This document shows, piece after piece, positions 2,607-32,907 of a stretch of 32,907 nt of DNA. The stretch is from Sarea resinae (lineage: Eukaryota), in contig JAPEUD010000122.1 of NCBI GenBank assembly GCA_026026165.1, positions 1 to 32,907 of the forward strand. Reading direction: 5' to 3'. A model generated the notes under the pieces. It searched no databases. It had not been told where the DNA came from and saw only the letters and a list, made by a program, of their open reading frames with translations. Numbering within the stretch: position 1 is the first letter of the stretch; each line of letters starts with the position of its first letter. The position numbers were made by a program, and so were the translations under genes.

Positions 2607-3941
2607 GGTGCAGGAGTGCTATTGTGCGGGGTGATATTGTGGAAAGTTGGCAGAAGATATCTTGTTAGGAAAAGCGGATGGGGATCTCGACCTGCGAGGG
2701 CGGGACTGGTGATCGGTGATTTTTGGAAGAAGCTTCGGGACGATGGTTTGGCTATCAAAGACAAGTTGCAACGACCAGGAGTTCCTTGGGGAGAGATGGG
2801 AAGATTGGGGGGATTTGGGGGGGATTTATGTTGGCGGAGAGGATGCTGTTCAGGAATATGTGCTGTGCCTGTTCAGGAGAACAAGCGTGCGTCCGCTGTT
2901 GTTCACCTCTTTGTTCAAGGTAGGCTTATTCGGCGTTCAACAACATCTTCTCACTGTTCACCCGGGAGTATCACTCAAGGAATTTGCTCGAAGAGGGGAG
3001 GACTGGTGCTTTGTTTTGCAACGCCGAAACACGGACAAATACATGACAGATCGACAAGCAATAAAAGAGCAAAGGATAGACAGAGGCTCTTCTCCCAGCT
3101 CGATGAGAGCCGCAGACACACTCATGTGCCGACATCTAAATTACGAAGCCATCGTCGAGAAGAGATGGACCCGTACTCAAAGAGCGTCGAGGAAGTCTGT
3201 CTTGTCTCGTACGACCGGACCGTTGGACGGGCCGGCGCATCCAGCTCAAGGTCTGATGATGAAGGCATCGGATCGAGCGAGGCCGGAGACGTGGAGTTGT
3301 CCAAGGTAAGCAGGACCGGGGGAGAGGCAGATTGGATGTACGTAGAAATGAAGAGGGCGAGGTGACAGAAGGGGACGGGTTGTGCGGATGTGATAGGGTC
3401 AAAGAAGAGAGCATTATGCAGAACAAAGCATTATGCCGAACAAAGATGATGGAGCTGTCATTGTTCGCGAGTGATATACATGTTGTTGTTGTTTTTTTGA
3501 TGTTCATCTGGACTGGAGGATCAAGGCATGATGGTGATGGTCCTGTTCGATGTTCGAGAACAATAGAAGAAAGGTCCGCCACGTGACGGGAGAGGCACGT
3601 GTCGGGCGAGTTGCTCGAAGGGAGCCGGGAGTCACCAAGAGCCCGAGACCTTTCGAGGTTGTCTCATGCGTCGGGCACCTCAGACATCAGACATTGGATG
3701 CAACGGCATGATCGAGCCAATCCGTAGGTATGGATGTGTGCCCGGCGTGTGAAGGTGGCTTGAACCCTTATCAATCTAATCGGGCCATCGTGGCCGACTC
3801 CTTTCTCGTGCCGGCCGGGGGGCGCATGACTCGTCGACTTGTCCGCTTTGAGCTGACGACGCCGCCAAGACCATCCATGGATGCCAAGCCAAGGAGGTGC
3901 AAATTCTCGTATTGCGTATTGCCTCTGGTCGGATCGGACGC

Positions 3942-4873: not shown

Positions 4874-7804
4874 ATGATCCTTCGTGCCGCCAAGATGGCT
4901 CCCGCTCCGAGGTGGCGCGCCCGGATGCCAACCCGATCGCAACTCTTCCACAAGAGCTTTTTGGTTCTGTTCGTGGGCGTGGTCGTCTCGGCCCTGTATC
5001 GCTACATATGGCTGGGTGAGTTGGGATCGGCATGGACGAGAAATTTCAGAGCAGAGACTGACGGCGAGCAGATACCACGGATCCATTCAAATGCGAGGCT
5101 CTCAAGAACGGAGGACGATGGCTCGACCCTCCGCAGGGCCCGTATCTCAACCGCCCATACCAGAACTGGCAACCAGAGGGTTGTGTCATGCACGAATACA
5201 AGAGCCCGGACATTCGCAGCTGCCTCGAACATAAGCGGCTGGTCTTTGCGGGCGATTCGACCGTTCGACAGCTGTTCTGGGCCGTGGCCAAAAAACTGGA
5301 CAAGGGCAAGGCTACCAAGGAAAAGCGCTTGTCACACAAACACAGGGACCTCGAGTTCGCCAAGAATGGCGTGGAATTGAAATTCTTGTGGGACCCGTAT
5401 CTCAACTCGTCAACGCTCCACGACGAACTGGAAGCTTTCTCGGGAAAGAAATCCGGCGACGGGAAGACGGAGGGGGCTTCGCTGATGTTAATTGGGGCCG
5501 GGCTTTGGTTCGCCAGACACATTCCTCTGAACACGCAAAAGGCTTTCAAAGATGCAATCGACAGCATCGTTCCATATGCGGCCTCTTCTCCGAGAGAAAT
5601 GCCTTCCAACCTGGCATCGGGGCTGTCTAGAGGCGTGGGACCGGCAAGCCTGGTCTTTGCGCCCGTCATGGTGCCATATTATGACAAGCTCTCTCCCTCG
5701 CGAGAGCTCACGCTCACGCCGGAGAAGATCGACCCGATGAACGAGTATCTCCAGCAGCTATCGGTAAACCAAGGCGTCGAAGTCCTCTGGAGCTATGCCG
5801 AGATGATGTCCATCCGGTCGACCTACGCTGAAAGCGGCATCCATGTCATTGAGAATGTCGCGATTCGAAAAGCAGATGTTCTCTTGAACCTCAAATGCAA
5901 CGCCCAGGCTCAGGCAGACGGGCACTTTCCGTACAACCGGACCTGCTGCAGCAATTACACGTCTCCGAACTGGGTACAGTGGGTGTTCTTGCTCGGGGGG
6001 GGTGGCCTGCTGCCCGTGTTGAACAGCATCGGTGTTCGAGACCGACGGCTCCTACCATCGGCCCGTGTACTTCGTGCAGCCATGATCTTCGCCGCAATCC
6101 TGTGCTACTGCTTCTACGCGGATCGAACACAGATCTTCAACAAGATCCAGAAACAATATGTGTCCAAGGAATTCCTCACTCTGAGCGGCTTCACACTCCT
6201 TCTCGGCATTCTGTCCATCCGCCGTTCGTCGGTGAAGCTCGACGGGCAAGGCAAGCCCGCAGACCAGCCCATGCTGTCCAGAGACCAGACCGAGGAATGG
6301 AAGGGATGGATGCAGTTTGGAATTCTGATCTACCATCTCACGGGCGCGTCCCAGGTGCTGTGGATCTACGAGATCATCCGATTGCTGGTGGCCTCGTATC
6401 TTTTCATGACCGGATTCGGCCATACCATCTACTTTTACACCAAGAGAGACTACTCCCTGCGGAGAGTGGCGAGCGTACTGATCCGACTCAACCTCCTCAG
6501 CTGTACTCTGCCGTACGTGATGCACACGGACTACCTTTTCTATTATTTCGCGCCCCTGGTCAGCTTTTGGTTTTTGGTCGTCTACGCAACCATGCGGATC
6601 GGCCACGAGAGAAACAAATCCCCACTGTTTCTCATCGGCAAGATCGTCTGCTCGGCCATCCTCGTCACTCTCTTTACCAAAGTCCCGCACGTTCTCGAGG
6701 TTGTCTTTACGATCCTGAGATATACCTGCCGCATCCACTGGGACGTCAACGAATGGCGGTTCCGCGTCTTCCTCGACATGTTCATCGTCTACGTCGGCAT
6801 GCTCGCGGCAATGCTCTACGTCTCCTTGACGGCTTTGTTTTCCCACCACCACACGCACGCCTACACGAAAAAGAACGCCCTCCTTGCCCGAGTCAAACCC
6901 TACCTGCCCCTGCTCCGAGCTCTCCTCATCCTTTTTGCTTTGATAATCCTCCCGGCATTCTGGTCGCTGACGCGGCGGTCGCCGGATAAATACGACTACA
7001 ATTGGTGGCAGCCGTACATTTCCTTTCTGCCGATCCTGGCCTTTGTAGTCTTGCGCAACAGCCACCGCCACCTGCGCAACTTCCACTCGTCCATCTACGC
7101 CTTCATCGGCCGCTGCTCGCTCGAGACGTTTACCCTGCAATTCCACATCTGGCTCGCGGGCGACACGCGCGGCCTGCTCAGCCTCGGGCTCACGCACGAC
7201 CGCGGCACGGACCGGCCGAACCGGTGGAAGGAGTTTGCGGCGATTACGGTGGTGTTTCTGTGGCTCAGCTGGTGCTGTGCGGCTGCGACGGCGGTGCTGA
7301 CGAGGTGGATCGTCGACGGGGGCGATGTCGCAGGGCCTTCTGCTGTTGGTTCTGCTACCGCTTCAGCCAGGAAGACCGACGAGAGGAAGCGGCCGATGGA
7401 GGAGGACGACGACGACGAAGAGCAACAGGAGATGCAATTGCCTCTGACGGCACCCGCGGCTACCACATCCACATCCTCGTCGACCTCTACGTCTGCCCCC
7501 GCCAATGGCAACGGATACGCCAACGGCCACGCGGCGGGCCACCACGAGCGCCACCTGAGCCAGAGCTACAGCTATCCCCACTCGCATTCGAACGCGCCTG
7601 CTCACCGCGGCGGCATCCCCGCCACGCGTCTGGGCCGGCTGGTGCGCCGCTGGAAGCAGGACCTCCGGGTGCGCATCCTGGTGCTGCTGGGGGCGATGTG
7701 GGTCTGTAATATAGTAAGTCGCGTGTCCGTTTTGTTTGGTGGTGATGCTACGATGTTGTGTTACCGCGAGTGCTAATATTTTGTTATAGTTGTATACTTC
7801 TTGA
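4874..7804 (+). CDS. CAS1: Cas1p/CASD1-family O-acetyltransferase (SGNH-like domain plus 10-TM acyltransferase), about 932 aa
   Basis: Exons 4874-5015, 5072-7713, 7790-7804. Introns GTGAGT..CTGAC..CAG (5016-5071) and GTAAGT..CTAAT..TAG (7714-7789) join in frame. Motifs WQPEGC, FAGDSTVR (GDS), LSRDQTEEWKGWMQ, YLFMTGFGH, YYFAPL, EWRFR, SLETFTLQFHIWL. Confidence 0.93.
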
Positions 7805-7852
7805 CTGCTTGCATTGAAGCGAATAGAAAGCCCTCTTTCTCCACCTCTATCC

Positions 7853-8390
7853 CTCTCGCGCCGCATCCTTTCTTTTGTACGATGCACCTCTTTGACGTTG
7901 GCTGCTAGCTGTCCTTGTCTGGCTACTAGGTGGCTGCTAGCTGCCCTCTATAGACGACCTAGCTGCCTGCCCGCCTGTATAGCTGCATAGCTACCTATAT
8001 AGCTACCTACAGTACATACCTAAACACCTACCTACCTACCTAAATAGTACACACCTTGTTAGCTATACATATCACCTCCTTTTTCAACCTATGCTACCTC
8101 TTAACCTCTCTACCTACTCTACCTCTCTCGCGCCGCATCCTTTTTTTTTTGTACGATGTACCTCTTAGACTTTTTAGCTACTAGCTAGCTGCCCTCTATA
8201 GACGATTTGGCTGCCTGTGTATCTGCCTGCCTATCTGGTTGCCCGCCTATCTGCCTGCCTACCTATATAGCTGTATAGCTACCTAAAGACCTAGCTATAT
8301 ACCTTACATAGCTACCTACATACTAACGCACATACCTACATACCTAAACAGACACCTTATTAGCTAAATATAAGCTCCTTTTTTAAACCT
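7853..8390. repeat. Diverged tandem duplication, period about 272 bp
   Basis: ctctcgcgccgcatccttt..ttttgtacgatg(c/t)acctctt starts at both 7853 and 8125; further shared blocks (ctgccctctatagacga, tatagctg(c/t)atagctacct, cctt(g/a)ttagcta) follow in the same order. Confidence 0.85.
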
Positions 8391-9201
8391 ACTCTACCTA
8401 CTCTACCTATTTAACCTACTCTGCCTCCTCTACTCTCTACCTCTCTACCTTTCTATATCTCCTTTCTCTATAGAATATAAAAAGGAAAAAAAAAAAAGGA
8501 AAAAAAAAAAGAAAAAGAAGAATAAAAAAGGAATAAAAACTACACTAGGATAGGAGTTCGAGATCTTTTGTCTACCTATAGTAGTAGGTAGGTAGATTTT
8601 GTTTTCTATATTAGGATAGTTAGATAAGACTATAGGAGCGTAGGAGAGTAGGAGAGTAGGAGAGTAAGAGAGAGAGAGAAGGAGAGAAGGAGAGAAGGAG
8701 AGTATGAGTAAGAGAGTGACTAATTAACGGTGAGTAAATGGTCAACTAAGAGAGAGAGAGTGTGTAGTTTAGACAGTAAGGAATTATCGATGTGACATTG
8801 ACGAAACCGTTGATTTAAAGTGAGTGAGTGAGTGAGTGAGTGATCAAGTGGTTCAGAGGTCAACTAGTTGATCGGTTCATTAGTTGATTGATTAAGTGAG
8901 TGAGTGAGTATATTGATAGAGATAGATATCGAGTGAGCAAGAGAGTGAGTGAGAGAGTGACCAATCGACCACCAAACCCACCAGCACGGCCAAAGAGCAG
9001 AGTGCAAAACAGGGCATCCATCCGAGCCGTAGTTCCAACCCATTCGAACCCAACCAGTCTAGTCTAATCCAATACAGTACAACACGACACAATACAGCCG
9101 TCATGGAGTCCATTCCATACCAAAGGAACAGGCAAGCCGGCATGCCGCCAGAGGAAAAGAAGACCACCGACAAACGGAAAAAAGGCTCAGTCGGACCGAG
9201 T

Positions 9202-12103
9202 CTAAACATCGATCAAACGTTCCTCGGCCGCCGCGGGCGCTACTCGAGACTGCTGCCGCTGCTGCTCGTCTTGAGTGCTGCCGGGCCCGTCGTGACGAGA
9301 GTTAGAGCTAGATCGTTGGTGATGCTGGTGATATTGCTCGGCAGGCAGCGCATCGACAGGACTAGAGCCACGGCTTCCATTGCCGACCTCACCCTCACCC
9401 ACGCCTTCATTCTCCACTGCCGCATTCTCGCTGCCCCGTGCCTCACCCTCACCCACGCCCTCATTCTCCATTGGCGCATTCTCACCCTCCACCACCGCAT
9501 TCTCACTTTCCTCCGTCTCACGCCCTCTCTGCTCGAGCTCCCTCGCCTGCATCTGGGCTACTAAGCGGACCGCGTCGGCCTCTTCCTGCGCCGCAACGTG
9601 CCGCTCGCCAATCCCCGGGACCAAGCTCGCAAGAAACAAGAACAGAGCCCGCTCGATCCTACGACCGAATCCCTGGACAGCACCGCGATCTCGCTCTTGG
9701 CGTTCGCGGATGAGTCTTTCGGCTGCTGCTTGCGGGTCAGGCTCGGCTTGTGGCTCGGCATTTGCCGCAGCAGGCTGTGCATCTGCCTCATTTCCACGGA
9801 CAGGGGCAGCCGCAGCAGCACCACCTGCGGCCATAGGTGGACGTGCCACATTGTCTGGGGGCGGAAGTAGCCCGTCGAGATGGCGTCTAATGGGGTCCCA
9901 GATGGCGTGCTGTAAACTGGTAAATATGCCTACCTGATGCAGGAAGAAAATGAACGCTGAGATGAGGACGAGAATGGTGCGACGCCAGCCTCCGTTGCCG
10001 ATGAAAAAGTAAGCAATGCCGAAGACGCGAAAAATTAGCCAGAGGGGACCTCCCAGGGGCATGAAAAGACGAGCCAGTGCGTTGGGTCCATTTGGCGGCG
10101 GCTGCTGCTGCTGATGATCATGATGCTGTGGATGCTGCAGCTGAGCCTGCTGTTGGACCTGAGGAGCATCGGCTGGAGGATGTGCTGGTTGTTGTGGCTG
10201 TTGGCGGCTTTGGAGTTGTTCACGCAGTTGCGCCTGCATCTGTAGCAAAGCTCGTTGTTGTACGATCCGAGGGTCTTCCATGATGTTCAGGTGTTGGTGG
10301 GCGAATTGAAGATTGGGGGCCCCGTACTGCGGAGGACTAGCAAAGGTGCCTGAAGGCGAAAACAGCAAAGCCTGAGGCCCGGTTGGAGAAGCGAGAAGAT
10401 AGACCGAAGTAGAAGTAGGTTCGGACGGAGCTTCCGAAGGGGGAGCAGAGATGCTCTGTCTCATGGGTTGTGATGAGGGAGAAGAATCTCGTTGCGAAGC
10501 TGCAAGCATTTCGCGGTTGATTCGTCGAGTGTTTCTGACCTGTTCGGATCGTGCTGCAAGGTCCACTATCCGTCTATTAAAGACGGCCTCAAGCATATTG
10601 AGCTGATTGGGAAATGATGCTTGTTGAGAGCGGACGTTGGTAATATCTAGCTCGGAAGGAGCATCACCTCTCGCCAGACTGTTCTCAAGCCTCGTCAAGC
10701 GATGATGTAGCGTCAGTACCATCTCACTGAGCCTCTGACTCTCAGTTTGATTGATCCCCTGTAACGGAGATGGACTTCGCTGCTGAGACCATATATTTGG
10801 AACCTGAGGCTGGGCCTGAGGCCCCAAAAAGGAACCTTGGTGGATTGGAGCTCCATGCTGATGAGGCGGTCCATGCTGGTGAGGGGCTCCGTGCTGCTGA
10901 GGTACATGACGAGCTGTGGGTGGCCGATTTGGAAGCCCAGCTAAGCCACCGAATATCGTCTCCAATCCCGGAATCGGATTGTTGTTGAGCTGCCCGGGCT
11001 GACCTGCTTGTCCCAGACCGGCTAAGAGGTTAGGAATGGCTGCAGTGGTCTCGTTGATGGTTATATTCCATCGCTCCCCATTCGGTCCTAGGCCTTCTCT
11101 GACAGTGGTGTTCGTACGCGGTTGCATCAAAGGGTTTGGCGTAGTTGATTGACTCCGTGGAGGTTGCTGCGCTTGCTGACTTGCGTTGTTCGGATCAGTG
11201 CCTCGATGAGCTTCATCGCCGGTAAGCACTCCATGCAATCCCGAGGCGGCACGGGCTTGCTGTTGCTGAGCCACGAGCTGTTGAAACGTGGGCTGAGGTG
11301 GAGGATTGGCGCCTGGGTGTGGAGGTGGAATGTTTGCCGTCCCGTAAGACGGTAAAGGCTGACCGGGAAGCCGAGGAAGCTGCTGTATCTGGGCATGGGC
11401 GGGGCCTTGGCCGTGATTCTGGGCCAACGCTGCCGCCGCCGGATTGTTAAGGAGACTCTGGAACTGAGGGGCTAATGCACTAGGTGGAAGGATATGAGTC
11501 GCATTGTTGTAGAGACGGTGGTTTGGCTGATAGAGGTGCGGGTTTGGGTCTACCTGAGGCCGGCGCTCTTCGGGATCGCGGGCGCCCGAAGGCGAGCTCG
11601 TTCGCGACGATGATCGTGACGACATTCTCGGAACAGGCAATACAGGTCGTAACGAGGGGTTTTCTAACGGACGATTGAAAGACACTGGCTCCGAGGGAGT
11701 CGGGCGCAAGACGAGATGCAAGTTCTTTGGAGAGGGATCGTTGAGCTAGATGACAGTCAGCACCCGCTCGGAAGCAGCAAATGGGGCCGGGAGTTCCTAC
11801 CGCCTCTTGACCAAAGACATCGCTCATGCTGTCCGTGTCCTTGGCTAATAAATGGCCGCGGTGGATCAGCCGCTGCCTGTCCAAGGCGGGCTTGGAAGGC
11901 ACGGCATTCTGGATCATGTGCTTGAGCTCCAGCACCGTCGTCGTGGGAGAGATGGTGAACGACAGCAGATGAGGAACTTCGGTGGTCGAGGGCGAGAGGA
12001 CATGCAGAGAGATGGCCGGGCCGCTGGCGGACGACGACGACGACGAGGCATCAGAGGGCAGAGGGATGCCTCCATCTGCCGGTCTGCCTTCAGCCGCCAT
12101 CAT
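9202..12103 (-). CDS. N-terminal ubiquitin-like domain membrane protein, Usa1/HERP-like ERAD scaffold, about 948 aa
   Basis: Exons 12103-11801 and 11745-9202; 55-nt intron GTAGGA..CTGAC..TAG. UBL: ISLHVLSPS..TTVLELKHMI..QRLIHRGHLL..LHLVLR. Long Q/P-rich region, two hydrophobic helices (LWLIFRVFGIAYFF; TILVLISAFIFFL) and C-terminal LFLASLVPG motif. Confidence 0.82.
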
Positions 12104-21660: not shown

Positions 21661-24600
21661 CTATCGCTCCACGACCTTGACCTCCGCTCTCACGGCCTCG
21701 GGTAATTCATCCGCCCCGATCACTCCCAGCGCCAAGACGTCGCCCCAGAAAAACATGGCCCGTTCATGCGCATAGGCGAGGTAGTCGAATTCGTCTTCGT
21801 CCTCGTCCTGCGGTGCGGCAGTAGTGGCGGATGTGGGATCGACGGCTGTGGCAGTGGGAGAAGCCTCGGGACGTTTAGCGTCGAGGTCTGCGAGCGCTGC
21901 TTTGGTCTCTGGAGATAGCGGATCTGATCCTGGTACTGGAACGGGGGCTAATGAGGGAGTGGTATCATTATCGTCGTTGGACTTGACCGCCGACTTATCG
22001 CCCTCTTCTTCGTTTGCCATGCCCGGAAGCTTGGCCTGCATGATCCCCCAGGCGACCCACTGCGCTGAGTTCGCGGCACGCCACCAGCGCAACTCCTCCA
22101 CGAGTCTCTCAACCTCCTTCTCTGTCACTAGTTCCGCGGCTCGTTCTTCTTCGTCGAGGAGCTGTAGCTGGCTGGTGGAGGGACCGCGCGAGTCCAGCAT
22201 GAATGAGGAGATGGTACTAGAGGGCCCGGCCGTGGGCGTCATGAGAGGCGTGCGAGGGTGGTAGTGCGGACGGTGCTGGATGTAGGCGCGAAGGAAACGT
22301 CGTTGTTCTTCTAAGGAAGGGTAGGCGGAAGTGTTGAGCGCGTGTGGCGTGCTGGCGTCGTGGTAGTTATAGCACCACTCTGTCTGTTGGTGTATGTGAG
22401 TTTTGGTAGGCTTTTTGTTTTCGCACTGGGTTGCTTACAAAGTGATTTGCGAATTCTAGCGCTGGAAGGTTCGCTGACGCGTATTCAAAGTCGATAACAA
22501 TCAACTGTTTATGTTTGTTTGCTGGTAGGAGTAGGGGCGATTCTCCGCTTGGCTCGAGACGGAGGATATTGCCGTATTGAGTCTTCTCATCTTAGCCTTG
22601 ATCCCGAATTGAACGTAAAAAGTTACTACTCACGTCGTTGTGCGCAAATACTAGTTGTTGTCTGACACCAGCAGGCCCGCCGTATTGATCGTCGAGCCAC
22701 TTTCGATACCGTCCAACTGCACGACAGAAGAGAGGCCACTCTACACCACAGACAAAGGCTCGATTTTCCCACCCTTTCTCGCCTGACAAGGTTTGCTTGT
22801 CGATGTACGAAGTAATCTGTCCGCATCTCTCGACCCACTTGTCCCAATTTCTCCATACGAAAGCCCCGGCATCGCGCTCTTCTTCCAAGAGCTCAATGCC
22901 GTCGTGAAGCTCCCTCATTCTTTTGGCGATCTGCTTGGACGTCTCGGGAACGCGGAGGTCCTCTGGCGTCAAGGTCTTCGCATGGAAGAACTCTTCGAAC
23001 CTGCCGTTGGTGAAAGTCCCGAGGAGACGAGGGCCGATTTTCTTCTTCGCCAGTCGCTCAAGAATTTGCAGTTCGCTCTCCCGGTCAATCAAGTGCTCGA
23101 CCTGCGGACCGTAGATGCGCAATAATAACTTCCTGTATTTGATTAGTATGGCCTTTCTAGAACAATGATAGAACTCACGGTGGTGGCTTCACTGGTTTTG
23201 CAATACCATTACTGTCTGTTGTGTCCGAAGGCGGTAATGGTAGATTCCTTGGCGGCGACACAACGTACACTGCGTTAGTCAAAGCTCCGCTCAATCGCTC
23301 GACGTCAATTTCACTACCCCGATTCAAAGGAACCCTTCTCCACCCTTTCAATCGAAGAGTATGGGCTAAGCGTAGGATTTCGTTCTTGAAAGTGTTCCAG
23401 GCCTCGCGCTCCTTAGTAGCACGTTTACCGGTGTTTGGTAGGCTCACATCTGACTCACTTCCACCGCTGTAGGCAAGCGTCTTCGAATTGTCAAGTACTG
23501 CCTCACAGCTGGGGACCAGCAGATCACCATCCTGGTATTCATTATCCGAAGAAGCTGCTGTGGATGGTCGCTGAAGGTGGCGGATTGAAGGGCGCCGATG
23601 ATGATGATAGGAAGCGCCTTTATTTCCAGGCGGAGGTCGCGTGCGTTTTTCATGGTTTAACGACATATTCTGTTCCAAAATCTTTTCCAATTTCCGAAGA
23701 GCGTCATCTTCGTCCGACGATTCTGACGGACTCCTTGGCGCCGTATCTTGCGGAACAGTCTCTTCTGTTGAAGCGATTTTCTGCGATCCCGCCCCTTCCA
23801 TCTTCGACTCAGCCGCGCGCTGCTTTCGCCTGGTCTTTCGCGCAGCCCTGTGCGCTTTCTCTCCCTCTAGCCACTCCGCAACTTGAGTCAAGAAGCCACT
23901 GTACGACTGGCGGCTCTTATTGGTCCGGTCGGTGTCATCTTCTTCGGATTGATCCCAATCAGCTTTAGGAATTGACGAGGTGCTTTGGTTCGCAAGAGCA
24001 TGCAACATGGGACTAATTGCTTCGACGGACGCACGTCCGGAGAGCCGCTTAGCAACGTTCGCGCGATGCTGTTTGGGGACGCGTGACTGGAAAAACTCCT
24101 CGCTCTCTTCTCCCGGCCGTGCTGGCCGCATCCTGGGAGAGATGCTTTCTGGTTCCGCAATCGATACAGCTGTGGCAAAGAACGATGAGTAAAGTTTAGT
24201 ACTTGGCTCCACCCGAACTGATTCATTCATAACTTGCGCCTGCTATAAGGAGATAAATAGACCCTAAGCCAGGGGTATAGTATCGAAAAGGTAACTGCTA
24301 CTAAGGTATTGCTTGAGAGGTAAAGAGGGGGCCTCGGCCGGATGCGTGCTCTAGCGGCATAGAGCCTCTCGTTGTAGCGCGTCCGATCCGAACAAATAAG
24401 AATAGAGATCAAACGAAACAGGAAGACAAATTACTCGAGGTTCTGAATTTATGTGCGCATCATAAAGGTTTCTTGCAACGGCCAGTAAAAAGACGAAGGA
24501 TATGGAATTCTCAAACAGTACATAAAATAAAGTTGAAACAGAGCAGCCGGCGGGGCAAAATAATCATGAAACCAAAAACATAGACTCCTGGAGTTTTCAC

Positions 24601-24732
24601 CTCAGACTCACCTTTTGAAGGACCTGATCTTGGTGACAGCGGCGGTGAACTGGCTCCAGCGACTTCTGGTGATAGAGTGCGTTGGGCATCCGGTATCACG
24701 GAGTCCGCAAGCTGCTGATGACTGGAAGACAT
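21661..24732 (-). CDS. CKI1: Choline/ethanolamine kinase, about 825 aa
   Basis: Exons 24732-24612, 24169-23179, 23132-22634, 22582-22439, 22383-21661 join in frame. Motifs RLSGALTNAVY, LLLRIYG, GPRLLGTFTNGRFEEF, Brenner motif FAHNDTQYGNIL, VIDFEYAS..ANHFTEW, FDYLAYA. Exon 1 is the least certain. Confidence 0.93.
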
Positions 24733-27599
24733 CTCGCTGCGAGTCGAATTTCTCTCGAATGCACAACAAATATACTCTGACAGTTTCGATCTGAGCCGGA
24801 CGGGGCTTGAGGTTCTTTTAATTGCTGCTCACCGTCTGATCAGACGATGTTTCACGATGAGGCTTTGGACAGCTGCGAACGTCACATGGCAGAATCAGTG
24901 GCAGACCCTAGCAAGCGCCGTACCTGGAATTCTCTCGTAAGAGTCGCTACCTTGCCCTACTATGGAGTAGTTCGTGGGGGAAATCCCGGTTAGCGACTGG
25001 AAAATGACGACGCCCGCGTTCGGTGATTCTTCTAGTCTGCACGCTTCACCTACTCGATCTCGACCTTCCAGATATGGCCCAGCTCGAGGCGACGGCAACT
25101 GATCTCGCAGAATTCGCAGAGCACAAAACGACGATGACAGAGGTAAGTCGAAGCAGGAACAGAGATGCAGAGATGAGAGAAGAAGAGGCGAAAGAAGGCT
25201 CTTGATAACAGAGTGAGAAGACTCTCATGCTTTTTCTCTCTCGTGCCCTGTTACTGTTCCCTGCTCCTTCCTCCTTCCTGCACATTGCCTGGATGGAGAT
25301 AGCAGGCCGCGTACAAAGTACTGTACGCCTTTCTCGTTATCTTTCCCTTGGCCACATCTGGCTCGACCAATCCGAACCGAGGACGAGAAAGAGGACGAGG
25401 ACGAGGACAGGGACCCTTCGGCTAAAGATGCAGTCCCGACGTCCCTCGCTCCTAGCCCCTTACGGTAACCTGGTACTCGACCCGGAAGGCTTCTTCTGAC
25501 CTCATCCCCTATCATCACTGCTCCAGGGGGCTACTGATATTGATATCTCTAGATTGGTGACTGGTGAAGTCTATCCGGCGTCAGCGTCTGTCATTCACCT
25601 AATAGCCGGCATATTTTTACGTATAATGGATCTACTGTTTCCTTGCCTCACTCCCTTCCCTACTTCTTCCCAAGCATATCTTGTTCTTCGCAATTCGTGA
25701 ATCTCAGATGATGATTATTTCTGTTCTTCGAAGTAACGAGTCTACTCTTATCCTCTGGGTTTCTGGTTTTCCTTTTCTACAACTGTCAAAACCATGCTAC
25801 CCCAAACTTGATCCTTTACTCGATTCGTTTCCTTTTCTTTCCCTAGGCATAAATCAGCCTGACGAACTCCTTTCACTTTCTGCACACATTGCCAATTTCT
25901 GTTTGCCTTACGAAGAAGGCTCTTAAAGTCGCTGCTTTAGTCGGTCATGTCTTATCAATTCACAGCTATCCTCGGAGATTTTTCAAAGAACAGCCGTGTT
26001 GCTCTTGAAACCCCTTGGCATAGGATACCGAAGAGGGAGGAAAGACTGGACAAATGACCCCTGGGACTTTAATGCTTCAGCTTTGTTGTCGATGACGAAA
26101 GAGCATATGCTACCAAAGAAGGAATCTCTGGTGGCCTACATTTGACGCAAACGACCACCACGACATGCGGCCTAGATACAACTAATATCTCGGAACAGAA
26201 CAAAAGGCGTATTTTCACAGTACCTGGTCTGCAGGTGCTTCTCAAATGCTCCAGTGTCACCTTGTCAGGTCTAGGAGCTTTACCTAATGCGTTACCTTAT
26301 CAAGTTTGCTAGAGGGAACGTGCCATTACCAACTAAAGGCAGCTCGCAGATGCCTGACATTGACATCCTGGTCCCTACGAGCGTCAAACTTCACAAAGTT
26401 GTCTATGATCTCAAAGGAAGGAAATGTTATCACGACTCTTCGCGGCAAGTACCGCCTTCTAAATCTCGCGAACGCGCAGTCGAACTGCGATTGCGGGACA
26501 AAACACCCTGTCAGGAAATAACGTCATGGCAGCGACAGTATATATCAAAGTGCAGCTCACCGCTTCCTAACAGCATAGAGAGTAGTAATGAGAACAGAGG
26601 GAAAGGCTCGATGGAGATGCCTACTTTATGCGAAGGACAGCACTTAAAACAAACAAATGCCATATAGGATATTAATCTGTCGGCGCTCTACAGCTAGTAG
26701 ACAGATTCAACCTGGCCACGACTAACAAGGATGCCAAGGGCACAATGATTTGGGAAAATACAACGACTTTTACGAAACAAAGTGAATTCATTGGTCTACT
26801 ACCTCGCCTGTTCACTGTTGCTAGGCTCTTCAGCCGCGAGTCCTTCACTATAAGAGAGAACCCTCCGCCTCTTCTTTTTCTTCTTTCTTTCTTTTTGAAC
26901 AACACTTTCCGCGAGCTATATCCTTCTTCCAACAGCATCATCCATGTTATAGAAAACTGACACCGTCACCTAATGCCATTCTTCATCGAAAAAGCTCGCG
27001 AAAGCCAGGTGCTTCAATCTGACGACACCTCAGTCGGCCAGGCATTGGCAGCAACTCTACGGGGCTGCAAAGGCTACTGGGACTATGGTTTGCAGGAGGG
27101 AAATGACCCTAACAAGGTAGTCGGAATCGGCTACCGGATCGGAGGCCAAGATATTCATCAAGTCGAATGATACCGAATTTGACTCGCTTTAGAATATTCA
27201 GAAGGTGGTCGCCATTGCCGTTGCCGCTCCGTCGTACCGCAACAACCCCAGGACATTTACTCGTTCTGCGCCTTCATGACGAATACCACTGCCGCTTCGT
27301 GGATGAAGATGGCGAGATCTGTGCAAATGAGGTATGTTCTGATGCCTCTAAAGAATGAGGTTCTGTCTGCAGAGGATTCTACATCCGCGACGATCTTCCA
27401 ATTCGCGGACCCTGCGAGGGTATAGAGGCATATTAGGCATATGATGCGGCCCACATTCGCCGACTGTCATGTATTCATTCACTTCGCCCAAGGCTTTATG
27501 ACATCCCGCTTTTCGGACATGGTTTTTGCTTCGAATTCACACGAGCCATGATAGATCACCTGCTCTCGCCTTCACAAACGATTGGCTGTTACATTAGCT

Positions 27600-28600
27600 A
27601 ATCTTATGATGAAATATGTGGATATATAACGAGGATATCTGAGCAGTGGAGGAAATCATAGTCTTAAGGATCGGAATAAGCAGGAATGCAGGTATCAGAG
27701 TCTTGTAATGAATTTAATCTACTTTGCTAACACAGCGACAACAACTCTAAGGCAGAAGACCCTGTGCTAAAAGTCTCGATTAAGCAGCTTGAGAAAGACT
27801 ATGCTAATGAGAGATTACCGACCTGGCCTTTGACAGAGGTTATATCTTACATTGCGGGCCAGGAGAGGAAAATATCTTCTTCGATCATGACGAGCCCTCA
27901 AAGTATGTCCGTATGAGGGCATTTCCTGGAGGGGAGCCTGCAGTCATTCGCCCTTGGCAGAGATTTCGAGGCTGCTAATCAAAACCAAGTTGCAGAAGCA
28001 ACAATACCGAGAATAATCTAAAGAATGGGTTAGGAACCTCTTAGGGGCAGCCCTGGCAATATATGAAGCGTACTGAGAATGGACGCGCATAAAGCAGGAA
28101 GAGAGAATGGCAAAGCAAGCCGAATAGGCAGCAGAAGCAAGGTCGGCACATGAGAGCTAAGTGGCTGAGTCGAGAAAATGGAAGCGAGATAATTGGGACG
28201 AGCACAGAAGGGAGGACGAAATAAATTACTTCCGAAGGTGGGAAGAACATTGCAGAGAATGCATGAATAGAGAAGAGCTTCAAGAGCACAAGGCTGCATG
28301 TGCGGCGAGGCATAGGAAATTAAGAGGCAAAAAGGCTAAAACGATGACCGAGGAAGAAAAGGAGAAAGAATAGGAGGAACAGAAGGAGTATTTGCAAGGG
28401 TATAGAGATCAGAGAATGGAGCTGAACGCAGCAAAGGCCCCTACCATAAGGGCAGCATAGCTGCTCAGAGACAACGAGGCGCGGAAAAAGAAGAACGCCG
28501 TTATGACAGCAGAAAAGAGGGCAGAGATAATTGCTAATGTTGCCTTTAAATTTGGACTACTGACATTAATCACACTAACAAGCAATCGACGCATTCGCTG
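27600..28600 (+). pseudogene. Decayed intron-containing gene with E/K/R-rich coiled-coil C-terminus, product unknown
   Basis: Intron-like GTATCAG..TGCTAACACAG (27692-27735). One frame reads LAEISRLLIKTKLQKQQYRE*SKEWVRNLLGAALAIYEAY*EWTRIKQEERMAKQAE*..EEEKEKE*EEQKEYLQGY with stops where Q/R would fit. Confidence 0.55.
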
Positions 28601-29779
28601 AGCTAACAATGAGCCTACGACGATATTGGAAATCTATCAAGATAAGACTTCACATTCTTCCTGAATTGTCTGCAAGCCTTCCTCTACATGCCGAATCTCT
28701 GCTAAGAGTGACTCGTTCCAAGGTTCTCATTTCCGGTGATCGGAACTCAGTCATAAAGTTCGGTATTGAGTTCTTGAAAAGAGAACGAACAATTAGCACT
28801 GAACCCAGTCTCCGTCGTATACGCTTTCGATCGAGCAGTACGATTTCGAAATAGCATGATCTCGATCATTGGAGAACTGAAATAGAGGCGTATGTGTGTG
28901 CTGCCTTGGAGAAGGAGAAAGCCCAAACTTCGTCAGAGCATTTGAGGGCGCCTTCTTGGATGGTGGGCTCCCGAGTGCGAAGTGATTACTTAGTCCTCTC
29001 CACATGAGATTGGAAATTTTGAGATCTAGAAGATTTCCACGCGACATTAAACAACTGCTAAGAAGATATAACTCAACGCCGAAGTGTACAAATTAAGGAC
29101 GATAATACCACAGCCTGTGGCGATTGACGCCCTCTCTAGCTCGCGTCTATTTAGGCGCATGTCAATCTATAGCTTCGTGTCCACGAAGATCGGATCCTCT
29201 GCTTCACAGCAAAGTTCTGTTCACCACTTATACTCTGATGCTCGCGCTGTGGAGTGCTCCGACACTTGTTATAATCGGCATCCTTGGCCTGCCGTTGCCT
29301 GCTAATGGAGTATAGCGCTTAGTACTACATCTGACGGGGACGAAATGTCTAGGACTCAATCTGTATAAGGTTGAGTGCCCTTGCGACAACAAAACTACTA
29401 CGGCACAGCTATCAAAGTAATAGATACTCTAACTATTGTCATCTGCCTAGGACACTTGATAGGGGCTTGATTCACGAGTCTGATAAAATTTTCACAAAAG
29501 AATAGACAGATCGCTGTCCTATTTACCTAGAACACGGAGAAGAGGATAGGGGAATATATGTGCCCAAGTCATATTTATATATATACATGCATCTGCACAC
29601 ACTAGTACCGGCTCTGCTATGAATGAATTTATCTCAGGGCGGCCATGTTCGCACCGTCCGTCGCTCTTCTTAGAGGAGCGCAGGAGCACCCAGCAACGCC
29701 TAATCCAACTCGTGTTCTTAGACTAAAAGCAGGAGCGGCCTCTAACATGTTTCACTGATAAAATCCTTTCAACATCCTT

Positions 29780-30750
29780 TCTTCGAATAGAACGTCGACA
29801 GCACGCGACAAGTGATTGAGGGCATGCGAGGAGCCTACGAAAGGCGCTTTTATGGCGTTTACTCGAACTTTGTCGATGTCGATACGGGGAGAGTTAGATT
29901 CTAGTGTGTTAAGGACAAGGCCCCTTACTACTGCACTTCTTTCCTATAGCTAGCTAGTAAGAAGAGGATATATCGAATGCTTTCTCAAGAAAAACTTACT
30001 TTTCTACAGCCCATGCCTAAGGGAAGCCAGATGCTAATAGAACTTAAATGTTAGGATCTACCCTCTTGGAGACATATTTCCAAGATAGGGGATTTTATTG
30101 TGCGATTAAATTGCACGAAGTTAACTCCTTTTCGACTGCTATGCTCGAACTGTGGCCGTACCTCAAGAAAGTGCTCGCCGCGAAAGAGCTTTTGAGTCTT
30201 CTATCTTTCAGTTCGTTTTTTTCATTGACGTTTTTTTCCGCCTCCGAAGAATTCCTTTCCTTTACTTCTCCGACCACGACCTTCACGGCGTTGACGTCTT
30301 CAAAACGCTCAAGTACAGGTCAAAAAAGTCCACCTTGGGCTTCGGCCATCCACATCTGCCCCTAGCTACGCTGGAAAGGGCCGACCGAGACGGATATCCG
30401 CTCGTATGTTACCAACATGCCAACAATGAAAGGTCGGAGGAGTCACGACAGATACACTCAGAATGGAACGATGCCCTATTGGCGTTGGAACGTGACCAGT
30501 GGACTGTCAATCAACAGAAAGCATTGGATTTGAGCCTTGTGAAGACTATGGAAAAGACCGATCGGAATTTCTACAAATCGTGAGAGACATCTGGCATATT
30601 GCGATGGGAGCCAAAGATCAGGGCAGCCGTACACAACGTGATAGCCAACTAAAAGTGTAAGCCAGCTGTTTGCTACATAGAGGAGATATGTTGACTCGAG
30701 ACCGGCCCCGCGACACTAGGACAAGATGGAGATACCATGCTAATGGCCTT
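29780..30750 (+). pseudogene. Decayed, divergent Spo11/topoisomerase VI subunit A-like gene
   Basis: Collinear fragments across stops and frameshifts: KAPYY (YY at 29926-29931), FLQPMPKG, DFIV/AI[K<E], IPFLYFSDHDLHGVDVFKTLKY[R<G]S (DHDLHG at 30272-30289), HICP*LRWKG (LRWKG at 30366-30380), MEKTDRNFYKS..EPKIRAAV. Confidence 0.6.
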
Positions 30751-30974
30751 TGAGTTAAGGTTTGAGCCTTGGTCTTATTGAAAAGTAAGTATTTCTTCCA
30801 AACAGTTCTATCACATGTAATTTCCGTTAGTCCTTGGTTACCCAGCGTCGACGCTTGAATGTTTCTAGCCTATTGAAAAAGCTCTGCATATACTTCTTTT
30901 CCCTCTAATGGATGATGCTTACCTCAATCGGAATTCCTCTGCATTCACTACCCTTGGCGGTCTATCCTCTCTAA

Positions 30975-31250
30975 AAGAAACACATATCTTATCAGGATAC
31001 AGCAGATTCAGCGTCAAATTATGAAAGGACTCCAAACTCTTGCATTTGCTTGTGTCTCTACAGAGATAGAAAGGGCTTTTCGCAACTAGGCATAAGACAT
31101 ACTTGCTAAAGGACTATCACCGAGAGACAGAGACTCATTCGATTCAAGTACAAACGAAGTGTCATAATATATCTTAAGCGCTCGTGGAAAGGCTGCTAGC
31201 CAAAATACTGTCTCGTACAACTCGATGGTATTCCTAACGTCGTGATCGAT
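30975..31250 (+). pseudogene. Possible further decayed ORF fragment
   Basis: Frame reads RNTYLIRIQQIQRQIMKGLQTLAFACVSTEIERAFRN*A*DILAKGLSPRDRDSF; helical and protein-like, no family recognised. Confidence 0.3.
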
Positions 31251-32780
31251 GTTGCAATCGCAAATGACACCGGATCCGACCTTCAGACCATCTAGACCGC
31301 AGATATAGCTATTATTCGAAACGATTCTCTAACATATCAGGGCATTAGAGGTTTGGTTTGCACCTCTCTAACGCACTTCTACTAGCTATAACATACCGGT
31401 GTGCTGTGCTGACCTATAAGGGTTTGGCTATTCTTACACCACAATATATCGTCTTCCGTAACTATTAAATCTTATCTACAGAACAATAATAAGTCCCCCT
31501 ATCAGCTACCCCGTTCGCTCAGTTTGCTTTCGGCAGTATGCCCTTCGGTGCCCGCCCGTCCGGTCCTGCTCCCGCGTTCGGTCCCTATGTACGCCAACGG
31601 CCAAATGGCAGCAACTACTTCGCCGGTTCGACGAGGTCGAGCGTGGCCCTGTGACGGCTCCGGTCCCGTGTGCGAACTGCGCGTCCAAGGGTTATGCGTG
31701 CCACATCGGACGTGGCCACGTACCTTCGGCCCAATGTTCGCGATGCATGTCTAAGTAGCCTAGGGCGATTAAGGACTCCCATGTTCCGAGACTCCAAGGA
31801 TGGCCTAAAATAGGATCACACATCTCCAATAGGTTTGGTCCCGGCAATCCTAGCAGATACTCTTTCTTCCCAACTAGCTCTTTTCTCCTACGATATAGTT
31901 CTGCTAGACAGGCCTGCAGAAAAACGGCTCTAGTGGAAAACGGTGTCCATTGGCGCGCTCTGTTCGGGCTATCGTTCAAGTCGTAGTTCTGGTGGATTAC
32001 GAGGTCCTGGGCCGGCGTGCCCGTGTCAATTCGTTAAGAAGATGCGGGCAATGGCTCTGATAAGGGGCGCGATAGATGGAAGAGACAATCAGGGGCCGAT
32101 GACCCAGATCAATAGCCCGAGCTGTTCAGTCAGGAGGGGAGAGCAAATGCCTGAATGACGAGCTGGTATCGCATCCTAATATCGCGCCTCCTCGTAATCC
32201 TCGTCATCTGGTAGCCCATCAAGGAAATACCGGCGATCCTATAGTCCAGTCCAATCTCCGCCGGTCGAACGCAGGCCGCCACACATCTAACGTTCTGAGC
32301 CGAGAGGAGATGAGAGCAAGGAACGGAACCTGTTCCATGATACGAGAACCACGCGATCGGATCCGCCCTCTCGATGGCCCAAGCGCCAAACACGAAGAAG
32401 CCATGATGGGCAGAAATGCACCTTTCCGCTCCGAGGAAACAAAGCGCAAGGATTCCAACAAGATCAGACCAGCGAGAAAACGCCGCCTTGACGGTGCGTC
32501 AATATTGATCTCGCGGGCGGCGAGGTTTGTTCTATTGTCGACCGACTGACCGACCGACCGACCGACCGACTGGGGGCCTGGACGGTTCGGTCGAGGATGG
32601 AAGCTGTGGGGGAATCTGTCGTTGGAGTGTTTTCAGGGGTGGGGGTTTTTCAGGGGGCGGGTTGTTGTTGGAGGGGAAGATGCAGACGAGATCTTATCAC
32701 GAGGCCGTGGATAGGTAGAAGGAACTCTGAAAAGGATGACTCCTGATTCTCAAGACGAAGAGGAGAGGGAAAAGGAGAGG

Positions 32781-32907
32781 AAAGCAAAGCAAAGCAAAGC
32801 AAAGCAAAGCAAAGCAAAGCAAAGCAAAGCAAAGCAAAGCAAAGCAAAGCAAAGCAAAGCAAAGCAAAGCAAAGCAAAGCAAAGCAAAGCAAAGCAAAGC
32901 AAAGCAA
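32781..32907. repeat. (AAAGC)n pentanucleotide array, at least 25 perfect copies, runs off the window
   Basis: Read directly from the sequence. Confidence 0.97.

Follow-up and report, generated by a model that had tools for sequence, protein, structure and literature searches.

The usual assumption is that a fungus has a single Spo11. A tBLASTn survey from 2026 recorded a single SPO11 copy in the vast majority of ascomycetes and multiple copies in a few of them; in the available portion of its data S1 only Millerozyma farinosa stands at 2 copies, and each of 34 Lecanoromycetes has one (PMC13251820). According to the same source, FgSpo11 of Fusarium graminearum carries both TP6A_N (PF04406) and TOP6A-Spo11_Toprim (PF21180). 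For Stereocaulaceae, another paper reports a canonical spo11 that has the usual domains (PMC11515122). In the literature searched, which included passages of PMC9665070, PMC11302465 and PMC12203943, no fungal Spo11 paralogue family was found. Here we analyse a stretch of 32,907 nucleotides from Sarea resinae (contig JAPEUD010000122.1), which we refer to as the window. Positions 30177-30685 of its forward strand are very probably an inert, 5′-truncated pseudogene of a small, undescribed and fast-evolving Spo11/Top6A-like family of Pezizomycotina. An earlier note on this DNA had read all of 29780-30750 as the fossil of a highly divergent Spo11/Top6A-like nuclease, and had proposed a multi-copy family that might belong to a mobile element, with lesions that look like repeat-induced point mutation (RIP).

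A Spo11/Top6A-like fossil in the window

A phmmer search with the open reading frame (ORF) 30125-30583 against 1.84 billion representative proteins matched four proteins (best E 4e-8), three of which are above the cut-off of PF21180, while the fourth is just below it. Two more searches enlarged the set of relatives to 14 clusters; it was completed with members of these clusters and with two loci from metagenomes. Hidden Markov models (HMMs) made from these relatives, A3 and A4, were run on the six-frame translation of the whole window and matched it at one place only, 30239-30685, with independent E-values (i-E) of 5e-20 for A3 and 8e-15 for A4. Within this place the frame-shifted stretch 30318-30446 gave an additional match (i-E 4e-5 for A3, 2.5e-4 for A4). 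A frameshift-tolerant alignment compared with shuffled sequences resulted in z values of 17-50 for all five scored queries, and the best tblastn E-value between the fossil and the family was 2e-17. Judged by sequence likeness, 30177-30685 is shown to be homologous to a family of Spo11/Top6A-like fungal proteins.

When used alone, the pieces from the window had no Pfam match up to an E-value of 10, except for a chance one to DUF659 (E 0.14), and phmmer matched them to no PDB chain. A plasmid megablast and a further search for longer homologues with these pieces returned no matches either. Since the pieces alone match neither Pfam nor PDB, the assignment of the fossil to Spo11/Toprim rests on its relatives. 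Pfam thus gave no family for the pieces themselves, whereas PF21180 was found in 15 of 16 relatives. The view that this is what remains of a highly divergent Spo11/Top6A-like gene is supported by these relatives, whose profile also matches solved Top6A and Spo11 structures.

About 170 codon-equivalents of the fossil survive, compared to 400-500 residues in a protein of the family, and they are distributed over the pieces listed in Table 1. The first piece is the counterpart of a helix, A-T-[RK]-E-F-L, located behind the GxPD loop of intact relatives. By itself it is a marginal match to A4 (E 0.05 at a search space of 1) and is collinear with the next piece; residues 134-195 of the family protein P0005 align by tblastn onto 30177-30386 with an E-value of 1.45e-5. 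The Toprim core is 51-68% identical to P0002, P0003 and P0005 in tblastn and has kept the DxD(xxG) motif as S-D-H-D-L-H-G (30266-30286). For the third piece, tblastn gave 44% identity to residues 291-324 of P0015. The fourth piece represents the helices beyond the Toprim domain, with the A3 alignment extending to its end, and is also matched by tblastn with P0001, P0013 and P0004. The last 60-100 residues of the family were not detectable in the fossil.

Table 1. Pieces of the fossil and the region preceding it (asterisk, stop codon; dots, residues left out)
Feature	Position	Strand	Frame	Residues or content
N-terminal half proposed in the earlier note, not counted as fossil	29782..30176	+		KAPYY, KG, DFIV/AIK, four TAG
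First detectable piece	30177..30230	+	frame of 30177	AAKELLSLLSFSSFF
Toprim DxD core	30239..30331	+	frame other than that of 30177	RLRRIPFLYFSDHDLHGVDVFKTLKYRSKKS
Third piece	30333..30419	+	frame of 30177 again	PWASAIHICP*LRWKGPTETDIRSYVTNM
Fourth piece	30440..30685	+	frame of 30239	..EWNDALLALERDQW..KTMEKTDRNFYKS*ETSGILRWEPKIRAAVHNVIAN*

Lesions of the fossil and the region upstream

Three frame changes and two internal stops (TAG at 30363-30365, TGA at 30581-30583) break the fossil, and a TAA is present at 30650-30652 in the frame of the fourth piece. The gene is dead and the copy in the window is inert. A precedent for rescue of such a sequence is FgSPO11, in which a TAG is edited to TGG during sexual development, a feature that arose several times in Sordariomycetes (PMC13251820). 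Introns are present in the relatives L001 and L002, and one could imagine a living gene with introns in place of the frame changes and with TAG stops repaired by A-to-I editing of the mRNA. This can practically be dismissed. The frame changes are found within coding sequence that is conserved and collinear, and at homopolymer runs (T-runs at 30231-30238, an A-run near 30332), and the gaps between the pieces, at 1-20 bases, are too short for introns. In close relatives the position of the TAG is occupied by Gln or Arg, not by Trp, and the near-invariant Gly of the LKYGS motif of the family is replaced by Arg in the fossil (AGG at 30317). A-to-I editing of TAG codons was rejected as a rescue of the locus, because the frame changes, the TGA and the lack of a detectable front half would all persist.

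The letters quoted in the earlier note are all present. The frame of 29782 contains TAG codons at 29788, 29902, 29947 and 30052, together with KAPYY and, 29 residues later, KG; DFIV, AIK, AAKELLSLLS, IPFLYFSDHDLHGVDVFKTLKYRS, ICP*LRWKGPT and MEKTDR..EPKIRAAV stand in frames other than this one. The Spo11-like reading of the whole region holds far beyond chance from 30177 on, but is at chance level before this position. The family HMMs had no match anywhere upstream of 30177, and the peptide from 29791-30101 was not matched by the family HMM even at a search space of one sequence. Alignment of the N-terminal halves of 10 members to 29500-30176 resulted in z values between -1.5 and +1.4. In an anchored test with 12 members, the 137 bases of 30040-30176 were compared with the 50 residues ahead of A-T-R-E-F-L; the scores added up to 231, the shuffled sequences reached 239.6 +/- 15.9, and 69 of 100 shuffles scored equal or higher. 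Given these four chance-level tests, the upstream catalytic tyrosine, the KG and the Toprim glutamate "one change away" that had been assigned here are chance-level readings. Pfam has no family for 29782-30176. The proposal that AIK is a single change away from AIE was rejected, since the anchored test found no homology to the family in this segment.

The detectable fossil starts a few codons past the site at which relatives (L002, P0013) carry the GxPD loop and an intron. As had been noted before, the fossil lacks the GxPD segment, and detectable homology begins just after it. Without a detectable N-terminal half, the fossil has neither a catalytic tyrosine (KAPYY being at chance level) nor the Toprim glutamate.

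The family and its catalytic residues

The family comprises about 20 unnamed proteins from lichen-forming Caloplacoideae, from Sarea and Cirrosporium, and from environmental fungal contigs. Those from named species are all annotated as hypothetical proteins and stem from metagenome-assembled genomes: five species of Gyalolechia, two of Seirophora and one of Variospora (Teloschistaceae, subfamily Caloplacoideae), Sarea resinae (Sareomycetes) and Cirrosporium novae-zelandiae (Xylobotryomycetes). The remaining members are ENA, Logan or JGI records. PF21180 scored above its gathering threshold in 15 of 16 members (best E 2e-17) and also in L001 and L002, while TP6A_N was detected in none of the 16 at E up to 1.

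In 10 members that span the N-terminal region, Y121, E219 and H220 (numbering of P0008) are invariant, and R117, D273, D275, K286, G288 and S289 are nearly so. Profile A4, which was built from 10 members, matched the archaeal Top6A structures 1d3y (Methanocaldococcus jannaschii), 2zbk (Saccharolobus shibatae) and 2q2e (Methanosarcina mazei) with E-values from 1.8e-8 to 4.6e-6. The match to 1d3y was the best of these and spans both domains; 2zbk gave 1.9e-7, and yeast Spo11 (8urq) was reached at 0.0015. In the yeast chain, the arginine of the family aligns with R131 and its tyrosine with Y135, the catalytic tyrosine. On 1d3y they align on chain positions 31 and 35, which by the offset of the construct are R99 and Y103, the residues named for M. 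jannaschii Top6A (PMC7671362). The Toprim glutamate and the DxD of the family also align on those of 1d3y and 8urq, and the DxD in addition on 2zbk. These alignments indicate that the family is homologous to Spo11/Top6A over its full length and has kept the whole catalytic inventory, and from them a 5Y-CAP fold is predicted for its N-terminal half. Intact members would cut DNA in the manner of Spo11/Top6A, with two protomers making a tyrosine-linked, metal-dependent double-strand break.

Sequence signatures peculiar to the family are T-E-H-R-N, S-D-H-D-x-H-G and an extension, D-L-R-W-R-D, at the N-terminus. Three histidines that are invariant or nearly so in A3 and A4 (H220, H274 and H276 in P0008) flank the metal-binding acidic residues in T-E-H and D-H-D-x-H, and the chains of Top6A and Spo11 lack histidines at the corresponding positions. 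These residues may point to an altered metal site. A stretch K-F-x-M-x-E-L-D is shared by the Caloplacoideae proteins and P0004; its Glu is Asn or Ala elsewhere, and it lies outside every Top6A alignment. It was not detectable in the fossil.

The metagenome contig L001 contains a gene that appears to be intact; its GT..AG intron (3658-3741) directly follows the tyrosine motif. This gene lies between a weak NB-ARC-like fragment (526-1098, E 0.008) and a long ankyrin-repeat gene (6295-9502), a neighbourhood with the make-up of fungal NOD-like receptor (NLR)-type loci. A search for two family patterns over 185,579 prokaryote genomes resulted in 23 pattern matches and no relative.

Copy number, decay and genomic surroundings

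The sequencing run X1, possibly the source of the window, was the only one of three runs to contain the stretch; X2 and X3 contain none of it, and no RNA run was listed for it. The depth of the window's own contigs in X1 was 347 and 372, and the locus is level with its flanks. At a likeness of at least 80%, X1 has no further copies of the locus and one other, very different family locus. The latter is a contig of 4560 nt (depth 383) that matches only 30254-30288, with 5 differences, and whose loose ends, translated by eye, gave 20 of 20 residues of P0004. The sample therefore holds a well-preserved family gene on another contig in addition to the fossil. The fossil itself is single-copy in X1, and the multi-copy status that had been proposed is not shown. 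Its identity is 27% to P0004 and 33-38% to P0001, P0013 and P0014.

Decayed copies seem to occur elsewhere in the family. P0002 and P0005 belong to one 90% cluster, lie on different contigs and show 17 differences in 190 positions, nine of them unambiguous G>A changes. One of the nine turned the Toprim Glu into Lys in P0002, and a further difference (Gly to Lys) would require two G>A steps. P0002 resembles a family gene copy from another source that has undergone RIP-type mutation, and P0003 looks like another decayed piece. The family would turn over by duplication and decay, and the window locus would be one decayed copy.

This raises the question of whether the locus is what the earlier note suspected, a Spo11-like nuclease in multiple copies that an undescribed mobile element of fungi carries or makes use of and that RIP has silenced here. 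The patchy distribution over three classes, the decayed P0003 and the G>A-skewed P0002 (relative to P0005) are consistent with this idea, as are the position of the fossil in a gene-poor stretch of 45% G+C and the fact that the prokaryotic type IIB relatives Topo VIII and Mini-A are confined to mobile elements (PMC7671362). Nevertheless, we regard it as highly improbable. None of 100 ORFs of at least 45 aa in 24.3-32.7 kb contained a Pfam family, and no transposase, reverse transcriptase or recombinase was seen among them; terminal repeats and long direct repeats around the fossil were not found. As an intact relative, the L001 gene has ankyrin and weak NB-ARC genes rather than transposon genes as neighbours, and inheritance within Caloplacoideae looks vertical. 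The locus thus could not be recognised as part of a transposon or as Starship cargo. The RIP indices over 29-31 kb are neutral (TpA/ApT 0.85-1.05, substrate index 0.99-1.13, composite index -0.28 to +0.03). The fossil differs from the family at 18 of 46 conserved columns, and the 12 single-step changes among these include 3 G>A and 1 C>T. With neutral indices, no excess of C:G>T:A changes and a single copy in X1, the locus does not present itself as a RIP-mutated repeat, and RIP at the fossil is not shown.

The upstream neighbours of the fossil are ordinary genes, coding for a Cas1p-type acyltransferase, a phosphatidylserine decarboxylase and a choline kinase. The stretch 24300-32700 has 43-49% G+C and no ORF above 152 aa, and a purine-rich, Glu/Lys-rich reading at about 28160-28560 (plus strand) may be another decayed gene. 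On the minus strand, 79 bases of 31226-31304 recur in X1 on a contig of 1579 nt with 6 differences and a depth of 51.7 versus about 360, which represents a small repeat or another organism in the sample. Two AT-rich islands (1-1500 and 7500-9000, G+C 37-40%) show the strong RIP-type indices that are missing from 29-31 kb, with TpA/ApT values of 1.6-1.9 and composite RIP indices of 1.0-1.3; they hold (GA)n, (TTC)n and A-rich runs and flank ordinary genes. An open frame of 847 aa at 9205-11745 (minus strand) matched no Pfam family at E up to 0.01, and an (AAAGC)n microsatellite (32771-32907) runs off the end of the window.

Relation to canonical SPO11

The family probably represents a lineage of its own, separate from the canonical SPO11 that ascomycetes have as a single copy. 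TP6A_N is carried by 95-98% of the members of the nearest Ascomycota Spo11 clusters of the Atlas, versus 0 of 16 family members, so that the combination of PF04406 and PF21180 which marks a canonical fungal SPO11 was not found in the family. In agreement with the earlier note, the fossil does not resemble a recently decayed canonical SPO11. The alternative is that the family represents a fast-evolving SPO11 orthologue and that the window holds an old truncated duplicate or a remnant of canonical SPO11. We consider this unlikely, although several observations weigh on its side and against a separate lineage. Each named species is represented by a single protein of the family, and the clade of Caloplacoideae agrees with the genera (support 100/100), which is the pattern of a housekeeping or meiotic gene. 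The catalytic residues are conserved, and canonical Ascomycota Spo11 clusters are the nearest ones in the Atlas (the Atlas features of P0008 reach 0.95 to them). Furthermore, exactly one SPO11 is recorded for Gyalolechia ehrenbergii in the available portion of data S1 (PMC13251820); this may be P0010 itself, and the family would then be the SPO11 of this lineage. The fossil brings uncertainties of its own: the N-terminal half may have decayed past detection instead of having been lost, and the tree cannot place the fossil, which has an end branch of 2.28 among unresolved deep nodes. Approximately unbiased (AU) tests reject neither a grouping with P0004 (p 0.55) nor one with P0001, P0013 and P0014 (p 0.51), and the fossil may equally be a duplicate that arose long ago from the resident gene or a member of a different lineage.

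Besides the lack of TP6A_N, the observations that speak against an orthologue are the weak match of the profile to yeast Spo11, an identity of only 45-60% when genera of the same subfamily are compared, and the presence in run X1 of two family loci that are very different. The profile search, which finds only proteins sharing exact five-residue words, retrieved no member from Xanthorioideae, other subfamilies of Teloschistaceae or other Lecanoromycetes, yet SPO11 is present in all Lecanoromycetes surveyed (PMC13251820). We slightly favour the view that several classes of Pezizomycotina possess, in addition to the canonical single-copy SPO11, a distinct Spo11/Top6A-like lineage, catalytically intact and fast-evolving, with duplication, G>A-skewed decay and loss, and that the window holds a fossil beside a living copy in the same genome. 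The groups in question are Lecanoromycetes (Caloplacoideae), Sareomycetes, Xylobotryomycetes and unnamed environmental fungi.

The window locus is a dead fragment, and its value is that it points to the family and provides evidence of copies being born and dying. The interesting part is the intact relatives, which keep all of the cutting residues. If the view of a second lineage is correct, a protein of this lineage, with Tyr, Arg, Glu and DxD retained, would be a new candidate for introducing programmed breaks into fungal DNA. Such breaks would be made outside the canonical meiotic pathway, and the protein might be a partner or antagonist of Spo11 or have a role in genetic conflict or defence.

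Comparison with known systems

Compared to canonical fungal Spo11 (yeast 8urq/8uru, FgSpo11), intact members have the same elements in the same order, R-x3-Y, Toprim Glu, G-Y-P-D..T-R-x-F-L, DxD..G and K-Y-G-S; they align on the same tyrosine and arginine of the yeast protein (Y135/R131) and match the same Toprim family, PF21180. They differ by TP6A_N, which is present in FgSpo11 (PMC13251820) and undetected in 16 members, by signatures such as T-E-H-R-N, by their patchy distribution and by the E-value of only 0.0015 between their profile and yeast Spo11. The window copy differs further in being dead and without a front half.

The archaeal Top6A proteins (1d3y, 2zbk, 2q2e) are the best matches among solved structures, and R99, Y103, the Toprim Glu and the DxD all have aligned counterparts in the family. 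In contrast, the NCBIfam equivalogs NF003332-NF003337 gave 14-44 bits in 6 of 6 members, with cut-offs of 424-675. The family is eukaryotic with spliceosomal introns, and no B-subunit partner is known for it.

Mini-A, Topo VIII and JetD of the Wadjet system are likewise divergent, stand-alone Top6A-like Toprim proteins. The best E-values of the family to JetD models were 0.0014 (JetD_C) and 1.8e-4 (DUF2399), and the PADLOC JetD models gave 11-31 bits; membership in JetD was rejected, since the JetD_C and DUF2399 matches are below the Pfam gathering cut-offs in every member table. A C-terminal S-E-L-D of some members recalls the xWELDAL box of Mini-A, but such a box is not conserved throughout the family. 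No mobile-element context was seen for the family, and no prokaryotic relative was found among the 185,579 genomes searched with the two patterns.

A fungal counterpart to the SPO11 paralogues of plants was not found in the literature searched. SPO11-1, SPO11-2 and SPO11-3 of plants provide a precedent for ancient, divergent Spo11 paralogues that occur in one genome and keep the catalytic tyrosine (PMC12203943).

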